This document shows, in pieces, positions 20,474 through 40,768 of a stretch of DNA of 64,000 bases. The notes beneath the pieces are model-generated. The model had not been told where the DNA came from and searched no databases. It worked only from the letters and a program-made list of their open reading frames with translations. The stretch comes from Escherichia coli (GTDB lineage: Bacteria > Pseudomonadota > Gammaproteobacteria > Enterobacterales > Enterobacteriaceae): assembly GCF_003334305.1 (NCBI RefSeq), contig NZ_QOWS01000021.1; one strand, 5' to 3'. Numbering within the stretch: position 1 is the stretch's first letter; the number at the start of each line of letters is the position of its first letter. Position numbers and translations under genes: made by a program.

Positions 20474-21613
20474 ATGGCAGCGGTTGAATTTCAATTGTCT
20501 AGGAAGATGATTGATTGGATAGCAAATTCTCAAGGAGTTTCTATCGAAACTCTTGCTGACCAAGTCATGCCCAAAAAGATTAATAAATTTCTTAACGGAG
20601 TGGTAAGTAAATCCGCAGCAGAAAAACTGGCAAAAATTGGAGGAATCCCTTTCGGTTTTTTATTTCTTGAAACGCCACCAACTCCAGCCAAACCCAAGAT
20701 CCCTGACTTAAGGCAAGCTATAAATAGCCGTGAGTTAGGAAAAGATTTTTTTGATGTTTACTATGATATAGAATATAAACTTGAGTGGTACAAAGACTAT
20801 TTAAGAGAAAATGGTAATGATGATCCACTCGATTTTATTGGTAAATTTAAATTTAATAGAAAATTAAATTATAAGGTTGTTGCTACAGACATAGCAAACA
20901 CAATACATTTTGATATACAAAAAGAGATAAAAAATGTCACTTTTGAGAGCTATTTTTCTAAAGTGGCAAAACTAATAGAAGACACTGGCGTATTAGTTTT
21001 CAAGAATGGTGTTGTGGGTAATAATAATAAAAGAAAACTTGACACGCGAGAGTTTCGTGGTTTCTGTATATCTGATAGCGTTGCTCCGATCATTTTTGTA
21101 AATAGCTCGGACGCGTTATCTGCGCAGGTATTTACATTATTTCATGAGGTGGCTCATCTTTGGCTTGGAGTCGATGGAGTCTCTGGGTGGGACACAGAAA
21201 AAAACATAGAATCTTTTTGTAATAAAGTTGCTGCTGAAATCTTAATGCCTGATAATCTCTTCAAATCTTTCTGGCTTAATGCATCCAGCGATAATAATTA
21301 TTATCGAGTAAAAGAGGTTTCTAAGTTATTTAAGGTTAGTGATTTCGCTTGTGCAATCAAAGCGTTACAATTAGATTTGATAGAAAGAAACACTTTGGAG
21401 ATAATTAAAGATCAAGCTTACAATAAGCCCAAAAAAGAATCCAATGGTGGTTCTTTCTTTAACACATTACCTGTTCGTAACAGTCCAAAACTTACGAATA
21501 TAATAATTTCCAAAGCAATGTCTCAACAATTACCATTAAGGGAAGCAGGCGTACTGCTAAATGTAAAAGCAGATACAGTTGTTGAATTTTATAAAAAACG
21601 AGAATCTCTATGA
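20474..21613 (+). CDS. HTH (XRE-like) domain fused to ImmA/IrrE-family zinc metallopeptidase (COG2856/DUF955-like), 379 aa
   Basis: AGGTGA SD 4 nt upstream; N-terminal HTH-like segment (SIETLADQVMPKKINKFLNG...AEKLAKIGGIP); HExxH motif in FTLFHEVAHLWLG and downstream E...AAEILMP motif typical of ImmA/IrrE peptidases; AT-rich. Confidence 0.75.
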   Translation: MAAVEFQLSRKMIDWIANSQGVSIETLADQVMPKKINKFLNGVVSKSAAEKLAKIGGIPFGFLFLETPPTPAKPKIPDLRQAINSRELGKDFFDVYYDIEYKLEWYKDYLRENGNDDPLDFIGKFKFNRKLNYKVVATDIANTIHFDIQKEIKNVTFESYFSKVAKLIEDTGVLVFKNGVVGNNNKRKLDTREFRGFCISDSVAPIIFVNSSDALSAQVFTLFHEVAHLWLGVDGVSGWDTEKNIESFCNKVAAEILMPDNLFKSFWLNASSDNNYYRVKEVSKLFKVSDFACAIKALQLDLIERNTLEIIKDQAYNKPKKESNGGSFFNTLPVRNSPKLTNIIISKAMSQQLPLREAGVLLNVKADTVVEFYKKRESL

Positions 21614-24648: not shown

Positions 24649-24827
24649 AGCATCCTCACGATAATATCCGGGTAGGTGCGATCACTTTCGTCTACTCCGT
24701 TACAAAGCGAGGCTGGGTATTTCCCGGCCTTTCTGTTATCCGAAATCCACTGAAAGCCCAGCGGCTGGCTGAGGAGATAAATAATAAACGAGGGGCTGTA
24801 TGCACAAAGCATCTCCTGTTGAGTTAA
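24639..24827 (+). CDS. Hypothetical small protein (62 aa)
   Basis: ORF in PL operon between exo and xis; no family recognised. Confidence 0.4.
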
Positions 24828-24991
24828 GAACGAGCATTGAGATGGCACATAGCCTTGCTCAAATTGGAGTCAGGTTTGTGCCAATACCAGCAGAAACAGA
24901 CGAAGAATTTCATACGTTAGCCACATCCCTTTCACAAAAGCTGGAAATGATGGTGGCGAAAGCAGAAGCAGATGAGAGAGACCCGGTATGA
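24800..24991 (+). CDS. Hypothetical small protein (63 aa)
   Basis: ORF in PL operon; no family recognised. Confidence 0.4.
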   Translation: MHKASPVELRTSIEMAHSLAQIGVRFVPIPAETDEEFHTLATSLSQKLEMMVAKAEADERDPV

Positions 24992-25067
24992 CAGCCACGG
25001 AATGCATTTTTCTGGCAGCGGGCTTCATATTCTGTGTGCTTATGCTTGCCGACATGGGACTTGTTCA

Positions 25068-25289
25068 ATGACACCTCAGCAGGAAAACGCCCTTCGCAGC
25101 ATTGCCCGTCAGGCTAATTCTGAAATCAAAAAAGCCAGACAGCAGTTTCCGGATAAAAACGTCGATGACATTTGCCGTAGCGTACTGAAGAAGCACCGTG
25201 AAACGGTAACGCTGATGGGATTCACACCGACTCATTTAAGCCTGGCGATCGGCATGTTAAACGGCGTCTTTAAGGAACGGTTAACATGA
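25068..25289 (+). CDS. Hypothetical small protein (73 aa)
   Basis: ORF 24972..25289 trimmed to internal ATG (MTPQQENALRSIARQANSEIKKARQQF...). Confidence 0.4.
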   Translation: MTPQQENALRSIARQANSEIKKARQQFPDKNVDDICRSVLKKHRETVTLMGFTPTHLSLAIGMLNGVFKERLT

Positions 25290-25381
25290 AAAGCAAAATC
25301 ATCAGGGAGCTACAGGCTCCTTTTTTATTGTTCGCATTCATCCTCAAGCGTATTAACCAACAATTCAGGGATTAATGGAAG

Positions 25382-25600
25382 ATGGCAGACATCATTGATT
25401 CAGCATCAGAAATCGAAGAATTACAGCGCAATACAGCAATAAAAATGCGTCGTCTGAACTACCAGACTGTATCCGCAACTCATTGTTGTGAGTGTGGCGA
25501 TCCGATAGATGAGCGAAGACGCCTGGCTGTTCAGGGTTGTCGGACTTGTGCAAGTTGCCAGGAGGAGATCGAACTTAAGAACAAACAATGGGGACTGTGA
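25382..25600 (+). CDS. TraR/DksA-family C4 zinc-finger protein
   Basis: 72 aa with CxxC...CxxC (HCCECGDPIDERRRLAVQGCRTCASCQEE). Confidence 0.65.
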   Translation: MADIIDSASEIEELQRNTAIKMRRLNYQTVSATHCCECGDPIDERRRLAVQGCRTCASCQEEIELKNKQWGL

Positions 25601-25647
25601 TGGCCTCAAAGCAGCAAATTTCAACATCGTCCAACTGAGGTGTAAAA

Positions 25648-25926
25648 ATGTTCAGAATCATTTTTCCTAACACCTGGTACGTCGACCACCACGGCACTCC
25701 CTGCAAAATCCTGCGTTCTACCCACAACAAAGTTCACTACATCCGAAAAGGCAGAACATGTATCGCCAGCATGTTCCGCTTTAATCATGACTTTGAACCT
25801 GTGAATAAAGCTGATGCAGATCAGATAGCAGAAGAGATCGAAACGGCAGAACACATTAAGAAGTTACGTGACATGCGTTCAAAAAGCAGAGGTAACCATG
25901 GAATCATACAGCCTCACACTCGATGA
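25648..25926 (+). CDS. Hypothetical protein (92 aa)
   Basis: ORF upstream of xis-like gene; no family recognised. Confidence 0.4.
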   Translation: MFRIIFPNTWYVDHHGTPCKILRSTHNKVHYIRKGRTCIASMFRFNHDFEPVNKADADQIAEEIETAEHIKKLRDMRSKSRGNHGIIQPHTR

Positions 25927-26269
25927 GGCCTGTCAGTTTCTTAAGATATCCAGACCAACCGCCACCAACTGGATACGAACAGGCCGCCTACAGGCAACAC
26001 GTAAAGATCCAACCAAGCCAAAATCTCCTTACCTCACAACACGGCAAGCCTGCATTGCGGCGCTTCAGTCTCCGCTGCATACTGTCCAGGTGAGCGCGGG
26101 TGATGGCATAACAGAGGAAAGAAAATGTCACTCTTCCGCAGAAATGAAATATGGTATGCCTCGTATTCGCTCCCGGGCGGGAAACGAATTAAGGAATCTC
26201 TTGGCACAAAGGACAAGCGGCAAGCTCAGGAGTTGCACGACAAGCGAAAAGCAGAACTCTGGCGAGTAG
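25898..26269 (+). CDS. Excisionase-like protein (Xis/AlpA-type HTH); reading frame continues into int
   Basis: [38 protein letters not shown]... directly upstream of int; unusually long overlap with int (about 145 nt), so 3' end uncertain. Confidence 0.45.
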
Positions 26270-27288
26270 AAAAGCTAGGGGATTTACCTGATGTCACTTT
26301 TGAAGAGGCCTGCCTAAGATGGCTTGAGGAAAAAGCTGATAAAAAATCTCTCGATTCAGATAAAAGCCGGATTGAGTTCTGGCTTGAACATTTTGAGGGT
26401 ATAAGGCTTAAAGATATCTCGGAGGCAAAGATTTACTCTGCTGTAAGCAGAATGCATAACAGAAAGACGAAAGAAATATGGAAACAGAAAGTTCAGGCCG
26501 CCATCAGGAAAGGTAAAGAACTGCCTGTTTATGAACCAAAGCCAGTATCAACTCAGACAAAGGCAAAGCATCTTGCCATGATAAAGGCCATTCTCCGTGC
26601 TGCAGAACGCGACTGGAAGTGGCTGGAAAAAGCGCCTGTCATCAAGATACCAGCGGTCAGAAACAAGCGAGTCAGATGGCTGGAAAAGGAGGAAGCAAAA
26701 CGCCTTATTGATGAGTGCCCCGAACCACTGAAATCTGTCGTCAAGTTTGCGCTGGCAACTGGTCTGAGAAAGTCGAACATCATAAATCTGGAATGGCAAC
26801 AAATCGACATGCAGCGACGAGTTGCCTGGGTGAATCCAGAAGAGAGCAAATCAAACCGCGCCATTGGTGTGGCGCTGAACGATACCGCCTGTAAAGTGTT
26901 GCGTGATCAAATAGGCAAGCATCACAAATGGGTGTTTGTACATACCAAGGCGGCTAAGCGAGCAGATGGAACATCAACGCCTGCGGTCAGGAAGATGCGC
27001 ATCGACAGCAAGACATCATGGCTATCAGCTTGTCGTCGTGCAGGAATTGAAGATTTCCGTTTCCATGACCTCAGACACACCTGGGCAAGCTGGCTGATTC
27101 AGTCAGGCGTCCCATTATCAGTGCTTCAGGAAATGGGCGGATGGGAGTCCATAGAAATGGTTCGTAGGTATGCTCACCTTGCGCCTAATCATTTGACAGA
27201 GCATGCGAGGAAAATAGACGACATTTTTGGTGATAATGTCCCAAATATGTCCCACTCTGGAATTATGGAGGATATAAAGAAGGCGTAA
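26125..27288 (+). CDS. intD: Tyrosine integrase (IntD/DLP12 type)
   Basis: 387 aa [38 protein letters not shown]... with C-terminal ...[16 protein letters not shown]...RRYAHL catalytic motifs; adjacent to tRNA-Arg. Confidence 0.92.
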
Positions 27289-27303
27289 CTGATTGAATTG
27301 TAA

Positions 27304-27380
27304 TGGCGCGCCCTGCAGGATTCGAACCTGCGGCCCACGACTTAGAAGGTCGTTGCTCTATCCAACTGAGCTAAGGGCGC
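27304..27380 (-). tRNA. argU: tRNA-Arg (anticodon UCU), argU
   Basis: Reverse complement GCGCCCTTAGCTCAGTTGGATAGAGCAACGACCTTCTAAGTCGTGGGCCGCAGGTTCGAATCCTGCAGGGCGCGCCA; cloverleaf-compatible, ends CCA. Confidence 0.93.
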
Positions 27381-27622: not shown

Positions 27623-28255
27623 ATGAAACCAACGTCGGTGATCATTATGGATACTCATCCTATCATCAGAATGTCTATTGAAGTTCTGTTGCAAAAAAAC
27701 AGTGAATTGCAGATTGTCCTGAAAACGGATGATTACCGCATAACCATCGATTATCTCCGAACCCGTCCTGTTGATTTAATCATTATGGATATAGACTTGC
27801 CCGGAACAGACGGTTTTACCTTCCTGAAAAGGATCAAACAAATCCAGAGCACAGTGAAAGTGTTATTTTTATCATCGAAATCAGAATGCTTTTATGCTGG
27901 CAGAGCGATACAAGCTGGTGCTAACGGTTTTGTCAGTAAATGCAATGATCAGAATGATATTTTTCATGCCGTTCAGATGATCCTCTCCGGATACACGTTT
28001 TTTCCCAGCGAAACGCTTAACTATATAAAAAGCAATAAATGTAGTACGAATAGTTCAACGGTCACTGTACTATCTAATCGTGAAGTGACCATATTACGTT
28101 ATCTGGTTAGCGGATTATCTAATAAAGAAATTGCCGATAAGTTATTACTTAGCAATAAAACAGTTAGTGCGCATAAATCTAATATTTATGGCAAGCTAGG
28201 TTTGCATTCAATTGTAGAACTTATCGACTACGCCAAATTATACGAATTAATATAA
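27623..28255 (+). CDS. fimZ: Fimbrial response regulator FimZ (LuxR-type)
   Basis: ORF 27560..28255 trimmed to MKPTSVIIMDTHPIIRMSIEVLLQKNSEL...; 210 aa. Confidence 0.9.
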   Translation: MKPTSVIIMDTHPIIRMSIEVLLQKNSELQIVLKTDDYRITIDYLRTRPVDLIIMDIDLPGTDGFTFLKRIKQIQSTVKVLFLSSKSECFYAGRAIQAGANGFVSKCNDQNDIFHAVQMILSGYTFFPSETLNYIKSNKCSTNSSTVTVLSNREVTILRYLVSGLSNKEIADKLLLSNKTVSAHKSNIYGKLGLHSIVELIDYAKLYELI

Positions 28256-28257
28256 TA

Positions 28258-28773
28258 TTAATTATAATTGATCATAAATATCGCATCCGCTTTCGCCACA
28301 CCTGGCCGAACACCGCTGGCTAACGCTCGATAATTGGCAAAAAAGTTTAGTGTGACATTGCCATTTGCATCTACTTCCTCAGTCGGGCTCGCCGCTCCCA
28401 GTGCGAGCCGGGAGCGATCGCTATTACGTAATTCGATGGCGATGGTTTGCGCCATTGCGGGATCATCCAGAGCCAGCAGGTTGGTATCGGATGCCGGCGT
28501 TCCCGTAAATAAAATCGCAACTGAACCCGGAGGACATCCCTCCAGCCGCAGGCTAAAAGGGACGAGTGCCGTGGTATCGCCAGCGTTCAGTAATTGTGTC
28601 GTAGGCCATCTGCCTAAATCTACCGTCTTATCAATATCCGCAGTGTTTACGGTACAGGAGAAATCAACAACGTTACCGTGCAAATTGATATTAATCGTTC
28701 CCAAAGGGTCAGCTACCCATCCACTGGAAATCCACAGTAACCCGCAGAAACAGCTAAAGAGTGCTCTTCTCAT
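28258..28773 (-). CDS. sfmF: Fimbrial-like protein SfmF
   Basis: ORF 28258..28968 trimmed to MRRALFSCFCGLLWISSGWVADPLG...; 171 aa. Confidence 0.85.
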   Translation of the reverse strand: MRRALFSCFCGLLWISSGWVADPLGTININLHGNVVDFSCTVNTADIDKTVDLGRWPTTQLLNAGDTTALVPFSLRLEGCPPGSVAILFTGTPASDTNLLALDDPAMAQTIAIELRNSDRSRLALGAASPTEEVDANGNVTLNFFANYRALASGVRPGVAKADAIFMINYN

Positions 28774-28783
28774 TCTCCGTACC

Positions 28784-29791
28784 TCATTGATAATCGACGC
28801 GTAAATACCCCAGCGCGCTAAACGGCCCTTCGGTCGGTTTTTGACCGGTAATACTGATAGGCCAGGCGCGAAGTGTGACATTGGCTGCCGCAGCTGCATC
28901 CAGACGGAAAGGAATAACGCTATTGAGATCGTTAGGCGTGATCGGCGTATCGTTCTGATCGGCGACAATAAAACCTAAATCCTGATTGTCCGACACCATC
29001 GCCTGACCAGAAACGGCACTGGCTTCCAGACGCATTGTTAAATAAGCCTGCGCAGCAACATTCGTACATTTGACCGCAATGCTCTTGGTTTGCGGCATGA
29101 CACCAGCAGGTCGATTACCCGGCCCTGCCGCACTAAATAACGATGCGCCGATATCACCAAAATCAAATTCAACAATCTGCCCGGCATTTAATTCGCAGTT
29201 TTGCGGTACTTCAACCCGGCCACCAAAACTAATGGTATAAACAGGTGTAACCAACGGATCGTAAGGCGTTGATGTCACATACACGGTAAACATCACCTGT
29301 CTGGGGATCTCCACCATGTTAATAAAGGGACGAATAACCTTTAAACGAAATATTAAACGAGAATCCATCACCCCGAATGGAAGGTTTTGTGAAACGTTAG
29401 GATCTGTTCCCATCCGAATATAATTTTGCGGGGGGAACTGAATATCCATCACACTATCAACCAGACTCACCGCACCTAATAGATAATCATTTAATTGCAT
29501 ATATTTATAATTATCGATAGTTTCCTGAACAATAAAGTTGGTGACATAACTACGGTATGTATAATTCACCAGCGTGCCGGGTGGACAAATTGCTGACACA
29601 CCTACCCAGCCGGATTTTTCCGGTAAAACAACAATCTGCCCTGGCTGGTTATTGGTGCTATTAAAGATATTTGAGAGATCATAGTGTTCATCTTCTGCTA
29701 CGCCAGTACTATTTGCACAAACAGTAGCCCAGGATATGTTTGCCAGACACAAACATTCCATCGCCAATAATAATCTGCAGATTATCTTCAT
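28784..29791 (-). CDS. sfmH: Fimbrial adhesin-like protein SfmH
   Basis: 335 aa ORF with signal peptide; position in sfm operon. Confidence 0.85.
   Translation of the reverse strand: MKIICRLLLAMECLCLANISWATVCANSTGVAEDEHYDLSNIFNSTNNQPGQIVVLPEKSGWVGVSAICPPGTLVNYTYRSYVTNFIVQETIDNYKYMQLNDYLLGAVSLVDSVMDIQFPPQNYIRMGTDPNVSQNLPFGVMDSRLIFRLKVIRPFINMVEIPRQVMFTVYVTSTPYDPLVTPVYTISFGGRVEVPQNCELNAGQIVEFDFGDIGASLFSAAGPGNRPAGVMPQTKSIAVKCTNVAAQAYLTMRLEASAVSGQAMVSDNQDLGFIVADQNDTPITPNDLNSVIPFRLDAAAAANVTLRAWPISITGQKPTEGPFSALGYLRVDYQ

Positions 29792-40609: not shown

Positions 40610-40768
<159 letters not shown>

Follow-up and report, generated by a model that had tools for sequence, protein, structure and literature searches.

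An apparently intact P22-type excisionase gene whose conserved overlap with int ends at one of two positions

Does an excisionase gene that continues far into the neighbouring integrase gene encode a normal excisionase, or is it a damaged gene whose prophage may have lost the ability to excise? This question is raised by an excisionase-like ORF in the E. coli DNA analysed here (a stretch of 64,000 nucleotides, called the window), which has no stop codon before position 26269, 145 nt inside an integrase gene that starts at 26125. The first-pass annotation of the window gave these coordinates exactly and regarded the overlap as an anomaly, for which it offered three readings: a C-terminally extended Xis, a lost stop codon in a degenerate xis like that of E. 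coli K-12, or a different true boundary of xis.

We found that xis spans 25898-26269 on the plus strand, from an ATG at 25898 to a TAG at 26267-26269, and comprises 123 codons plus the stop. A GAGG Shine-Dalgarno sequence (25889-25892, plus strand) lies 5 nt before the ATG, which matches the annotated xis start in P22, SfI, ES18 and ENT47670. The int gene (26125-27288, plus strand) starts with the ATG at 26125, is preceded by its own ribosome-binding site on the same strand (GAGGA at 26114-26118) and encodes a P22/DLP12-type tyrosine integrase of 387 aa. The two genes share a dual-coding segment of 145 nt (26125-26269, plus strand) in which the xis frame is +1 relative to int, and the last 47 sense codons of xis (Xis residues 77-123) lie inside the first 48 codons of int (Int residues 1-48). 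When we scanned positions 25000-27300 for an int promoter inside xis we found none; the argU promoter was the sole match.

Upstream of xis there is a DUF4222 gene (25648-25926, plus strand) that matches PHROG 285, overlaps the start of xis by 29 nt and carries the DUF4222 label in the annotations of E. coli A7 and phage SfI. Among the database proteins there are a few DUF4222-Xis fusions of 206-207 aa (P0001, P0003-P0006), which probably stem from single-base frameshifts or from sequencing errors in this 29-nt overlap. In many loci, the reading frame is also open upstream of the conserved xis ATG, which in the window has a good Shine-Dalgarno sequence, and in SfV (L097 1108-1551) and in P0012, P0027, P0028, P0032, P0033, P0117 and P0118 the annotated product of xis begins at an in-frame start further upstream and has 144-151 aa; the N-terminus of Xis may be ambiguous in lineages with such a start.

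The identification of the ORF as an excisionase homologue holds. The 123-aa protein is 76% identical to phage P22 Xis over 122 aa (tblastn, residues 1-122), it has full-length matches to P22 Xis and 161 other phage records, and its residues 1-116 align to positions 2-117 of the 117 positions of the PHROG 2907 'excisionase' profile (E 5.9e-46). The N-terminal part (residues 1-60; 25898-26077, plus strand) is a predicted winged-helix DNA-binding domain of the HTH_17, excisionase type: Pfam HTH_17 matches residues 6-36 (E 6.8e-8), and the TIGR01764 'excise' model scores 27.7 bits, slightly below its cut-off of 28.8. In an AF2 model built from an alignment of 54 homologues, residues 1-60 have pLDDT values of 83-95, and in a Foldseek search this domain matched Pukovnik Xis (4j2n, TM 0.78) and BldC (6ama, TM 0.75), with which the N-terminal ~55 residues share a MerR-like winged-helix fold (rmsd 2.4-2.8 A). 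The family profile also matches 4j2n by sequence (E 7e-4). Pukovnik Xis and BldC, at 55-72 residues, have no counterpart of the ~60-residue C-terminal part, which in the window is encoded within int. For this C-terminal half the pLDDT is 43-66; residues 61-88 and 104-123 are predicted to be disordered, and the sole predicted helix, at residues 89-103 (26162-26206, plus strand), is of low confidence (pLDDT about 50-66). Nevertheless, C77, G86, T87, L98, L102 and T106 are invariant or nearly so in the 54 homologues, in which identity goes down to 39%. Judged by its sequence, the ORF at 25898-26269 is thus an intact P22-type excisionase (a recombination directionality factor) and not a damaged gene.

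The expectation that such an overlap is abnormal had come from phage lambda. Lambda Xis has the same expected role as the window protein, that of a winged-helix recombination directionality factor, and its gene likewise lies upstream of int on the same strand and overlaps int at its 3' end. In contrast, lambda xis (28860-29078) overlaps int (27812-28882) by only 23 nt, where the first-pass annotation had put about 20 codons, and lambda Xis (72 aa) is 51 residues shorter than Xis of the window and has no detectable similarity to it by BLASTP (E 1.9). No lambda-Xis family was found among the Pfam, NCBIfam or PHROG matches of the window protein. On the BLASTP result we rejected lambda Xis as the reference family.

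Compared with P22, the window has the same gene order, strand, +1 frame relation and start codon context, and in both xis ends inside int. The P22 stop comes 7 codons earlier, giving a 124-nt overlap, and P22 has Leu (CTG) at Int residue 41 where the window has Arg (CGA). The P22 element integrates at thrW (according to the HK446/P22-type annotation), and the element in the window is at argU.

To see how the overlap varies, we compared 43 loci, 13 of them from phage records and 30 from IMG/VR, the latter being relatives of the Yersinia- and Pantoea-type members of the family. (A first scan of viral contigs with the family alignment gave 80 near-identical E. coli loci that were unusable for divergence, and the scan was repeated with distant members as queries.) In all 43 loci, which represent at least 8 genera, xis overlaps int with an identical frame offset, and the overlap measures 124 nt in 25 loci and 145 nt in the other 18; the 25 include three loci in which an apparent overlap of 196 nt results from the choice of an upstream ATG. 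An overlap of 124 nt goes with an Xis of 115/116 aa and an overlap of 145 nt with an Xis of 122/123 aa, as in the window. The P22 record has a 116-aa xis and a 124-nt overlap, and the same 124 nt are annotated in HK446, SfX, SfI, SfV, ES18 and Cronobacter phage ENT47670. Among the long class, Shigella phage POCJ13, Enterobacter phage vB_Ecl_MII_001, APSE-7 of Hamiltonella and Proteus phage vB_BPM-V3 share with the window the extent of the gene, the 145-nt overlap, the terminal motif and the stop position, although their proteins are only 45-86% identical to that of the window and their hosts and att sites differ; in APSE-7 and vB_Ecl_MII_001 the ORF is annotated up to this stop. A protein search gave the same two length classes, 115/116 and 122/123 aa, and added 122/123-aa members from Salmonella, Citrobacter, Cronobacter, Atlantibacter, Serratia, Pantoea and Rahnella. 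As a side observation, int of vB_Ecl_MII_001 is split into several short CDS fragments (L088 1657-2590) next to an intact xis of 123 aa, which reflects either sequencing errors or a decayed integrase.

The length of Xis is tied to a single codon of int. In 16 of 16 non-redundant short-class loci, Int codon 41 encodes Leu (CTG/CTA/TTA), and the last two bases of this codon together with the A of the following Lys codon form a TGA or TAA in the xis frame, so that Xis is short. In 18 of 18 non-redundant long-class loci the codon encodes Arg (CGA/AGA), as it does in POCJ13, vB_Ecl_MII_001, APSE-7 and vB_BPM-V3 where Int is intact, and the xis frame reads 7 codons further to a conserved TAG or TAA. 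This second stop is formed by Int codon 48, which in the long class is always GTA or ATA, and the first base of codon 49 (G or A); in the short class, the codon 48 position drifts. The window has CGA at 26245-26247 (plus strand) and therefore carries the long form of Xis, with a 7-codon extension beyond the P22 end (26246-26266, plus strand; EKQNSGE). An extension of equal extent with the motif E-K/R-x-N/S-x-G-E is shared by APSE-7, the Proteus phage and prophages of Serratia and Pantoea. This two-state end point tied to Int residue 41 is a mildly new point. The length classes might also be a functional dimorphism, in which one DNA position sets both Int residue 41, which lies in the arm-binding N-terminal domain, and a selected 7-residue Xis tail, but we regard this as doubtful. 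If it were true, overlap coding would tie the Xis C-terminus to the Int domain that it presumably contacts, for example in matched Xis-Int pairs among co-resident lambdoid prophages.

These comparisons decide most of what had been proposed for this locus. An overlap of 124 or 145 nt is universal in the P22-type family, and conserved full-length homologues with the same extent as the window gene (122/123 aa, same stop) exist, which removes the grounds for calling the overlap anomalous. A different true boundary of xis finds no support, both start and stop coinciding with those of homologues. The idea of a C-terminally extended Xis came closest, given that the protein exceeds P22 Xis by 7 residues and lambda Xis by 51; what does not stand is the premise of an abnormal overlap. 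The xis-int arrangement is ordinary and already known; it had been seen correctly and misjudged as unusual.

The comparison with the DLP12 xisD/intD genes of E. coli K-12 (b4633/b0537), which share the chromosomal site argU-intD-xis with the window, also shows why K-12 is no precedent for a lost stop. From xis codon ~46 on (window ~26030), K-12 xisD differs from the window by one substitution and likewise lacks the P22-type stop. Its defect is instead the deletion of the first ~45 codons, which encode the DNA-binding domain, whereas the window gene is complete. K-12 xisD is annotated as a 222-nt pseudogene whose annotated 3' end mirrors the end of the P22 protein and is not at a stop codon. 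In K-12 DLP12, a deletion of ~1.4 kb (window ~24650-26030; L006 2580-2640) has fused the middle of xis to the end of exo and the opening codons of the DUF1317 gene. It removed the DUF1317, DUF1382, DksA-like and DUF4222 genes and the 5' part of xis, all of which are present in the window.

To quantify constraint on the overlap, we counted synonymous differences in an int codon alignment of 17 independent sister pairs, in which each sequence was used once and positions were counted where the amino acid was conserved. In the overlap (int codons 2-41), we found 118 synonymous differences at 622 positions (0.19), as compared to 1590 at 4053 (0.39) in int codons 49-340 and 286 at 980 (0.29) in the part of xis outside int. 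The fraction in the overlap is below both that of the rest of int (stratified CMH z = -10.8 over the 17 pairs) and that of the xis-only part for the same pairs (p = 2e-6). The xis-only DNA is itself somewhat less divergent than int, a hint of mosaic histories; that the overlap falls below both of its flanks argues against a purely mosaic-history explanation. The suppression is strongest in int codons 2-15 (31/205, 0.15) and continues in codons 16-41 (87/417, 0.21 vs 0.39, p = 1e-14). Over the extension (Int codons 42-48), there were 9 differences at 47 positions in long-class pairs as compared to 22 at 47 in short-class pairs (p = 0.008, with small counts), and the baselines of the two classes were similar (0.37 and 0.42). 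When Xis-frame identity was divided by Int identity, 7 of 11 distant pairs had a higher ratio in the overlap than in any of the 57 other 40-codon windows of int. An initial substitution test on only 10 phage sequences (5 pairs) had given a weak result (pooled p = 0.016), after which the IMG/VR loci were added. Synonymous variation also falls at the 3' end of int (window ~27160-27288, codons ~346-387), to 0.23-0.29 as compared to about 0.40 in the middle of the gene; this dip lies beside the att core and the argU 3' end, and a possible cause is the presence of Int arm or core sites, or of sequence derived from the tRNA, within the coding region.

The openness of the xis frame is a weaker argument. 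An open +1 frame of ~40 codons survives in 10-57% of synonymous recodings of Int (P 0.10-0.57 per sequence), and open +1 runs of 40-60 codons are present at other places in int, so that openness alone is not decisive. On comparative grounds the overlap is nonetheless not accidental, given that the stop is found at only two positions in 43 loci and that synonymous variation in int is suppressed there, and both frames of the overlap appear to be under selection. This quantitative evidence for selection on both frames is the other mildly new point.

Two other explanations of the locus have to be weighed against these data. Xis could be degenerate, having lost an ancestral stop at codon 117 and reading through to the next chance stop, which would give an aberrant protein and an excision-dead prophage. 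P22 and 21 other loci do end 7 codons sooner, one change in Int codon 41 is enough to remove the P22-type stop, and an automatic pipeline (PGAP) has flagged a pseudogene at the position of xis in strain A7. A chance readthrough is hard to reconcile with the long form being found in 18 of 34 non-redundant loci with a constant stop and a similar E-K/R-x-N/S-x-G-E tail, from phages of Escherichia/Shigella, Enterobacter, Hamiltonella (APSE) and Proteus to IMG/VR relatives of a Pantoea Xis, and with proteins of the same length in the seven further genera of the protein search. Moreover, in the long class Int codon 48 and the next base keep the TAG or TAA that drifts in the short class, the long class alone shows reduced synonymous variation across the extension, and the identical allele is present in phage genome records. 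The PGAP call takes in no more than 22 N-terminal codons, although the ORF itself has no interruption, and is an annotation artefact. We consider a degenerate xis extremely improbable.

The remaining explanation accepts an intact Xis in which only the N-terminal ~60-75 residues matter, with the tail embedded in int being functionless and the constraint coming from the int mRNA (ribosome binding, 5' structure or regulatory sites). The tail is mostly disordered by prediction, an open +1 frame fits many synonymous recodings of Int, the suppression peaks beside the int start codon, and the similar suppression at the 3' end of int is clearly unrelated to xis. Translation initiation probably accounts for some of the suppression close to the int start, and an RNA effect could be the source of part of it. 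However, the suppression in codons 16-41 goes past a typical initiation-region effect, and over codons 42-48 it is present only in the long class; the constraint thus tracks the xis stop, as translation of the extension predicts and as a constraint at the RNA level does not. The nearly invariant residues from C77 to T106 also speak for the tail. In lambda, the disordered C-terminal tail of Xis is the Int-binding element and contacts the Int N-terminal domain, which bears on the P22-type tail by analogy only. A functionless tail is therefore improbable in our view, if not quite to the degree of a degenerate gene. Our preferred reading, which we hold with high confidence, is that an intact P22-type xis lies in a complete-looking lambdoid prophage at argU and has a conserved overlap with int that ends 124 or 145 nt inside it.

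We found that public annotation of this gene is uneven. The exact 123-aa protein is present on at least 1000 public contigs, named 'helix-turn-helix domain-containing protein' or, in BL21-Gold(DE3), 'excisionase'. In E. coli A7 (NZ_CP028767.1), RefSeq PGAP reduces an identical, uninterrupted xis to a 66-nt pseudogene (window 25898-25963; L002 1799-1864) labelled 'HTH domain-containing protein, incomplete, missing C-terminus', and xis is unannotated in the phage records PhiR30_1, POCJ13, EPP-1, vB_BPM-V3 and HK639. Missed or shortened xis genes are probably a systematic effect of a penalty on same-strand overlaps of >120 nt. We also observed E. coli proteins of 210-212 aa annotated as 'recombinase family protein' (P0007, P0008), in which a 99%-identical Xis (96% of the query) is joined to a Pfam resolvase domain (PF00239); these suggest rearranged loci with xis directly next to a serine recombinase, an arrangement seen in the YbcK-type phages 4A7 and Perceval.

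The surroundings of xis and int place the element at a known site. Int of the window is 72% identical to P22 Int, matches PHROG integrase families and is annotated as intD in E. coli genomes that are 100% identical across the region. The integration target, argU tRNA-Arg(UCU) (27304-27380, minus strand; identified with ARAGORN), has its 3' end 15 nt beyond the int stop; the order argU-int-xis is the same as for argU-intD in K-12, and with fimZ beyond it this identifies the argU/DLP12 site of E. coli. The window contains lambdoid prophage genes for major tail, major head, portal, large terminase, O/P, CII, CI, Bet, Exo, DksA-like and DUF4222 proteins. Several E. coli chromosomes match a 1.8-kb stretch of the window at 100% identity, and at least 80% of this stretch is found in 1187 of 5426 complete genomes. 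An identical Xis is encoded in the phage genome records PhiR30_1 and ev243 and a 99.2%-identical one in PhiR49_1 and PhiR29_1; a literature search found no paper describing the PhiR/ev243 phages. A search of the window for a second att site, in the form of a directly repeated argU 3' end, found none, which places the left end of the prophage beyond position 1. For DLP12, PMC6379469 describes a repeat of this kind of ~47 bp. In their sequences, xis and int contain nothing that speaks against excision, and the second att copy is outside the window.

Two other features of the window are recorded here. Directly downstream of the CI-like repressor gene there is a 379-aa ORF (20474-21613, plus strand) that matches PHROG 2439 'transcriptional regulator' and, weakly, PHROG 87 (metalloprotease); it may be a repressor-linked regulator, a moron or a defence gene. 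At 40645-40767 there are two 53-nt direct repeats, 89% identical and 70 nt apart, with a palindromic GCCTGATAAGACGCG...CGCATCAGGC motif that is typical of E. coli REP/BIME elements.

What is known of P22 and lambda suggests how the protein would act. P22 delta-xis prophages are unable to excise, and xis is genetically required for P22 excision (PMC8575938). According to PMC7498355, which cites Mattis et al. 2008, P22 Xis strongly bends att DNA, and its KD for binding to a single operator is about 1 uM. By extension, the winged-helix domain (residues 1-60) would bind and bend the attR arm. Residues 61-123, which form the flexible and basic C-terminal part, would recruit or position Int, probably through the arm-binding Int N-terminal domain, and Int would then perform the attL x attR reaction in place of integration. 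The same DNA specifies both the overlap-encoded Xis tail and the Int N-terminal domain. A role of this tail in contacting Int is suggested by the analogy with lambda; the predicted structure, with its pLDDT of 43-66, offers no fold that backs a function for the overlap-encoded part.

Taken together, these data suggest that the argU prophage carries an intact xis-int module and that the overlap is no ground for scoring it as excision-defective. Because the end point in this family always lies 124 or 145 nt inside int, it provides a simple rule for annotating xis. The xis/int overlap is also a clean, small example of dual coding in which selection appears measurable on both frames.
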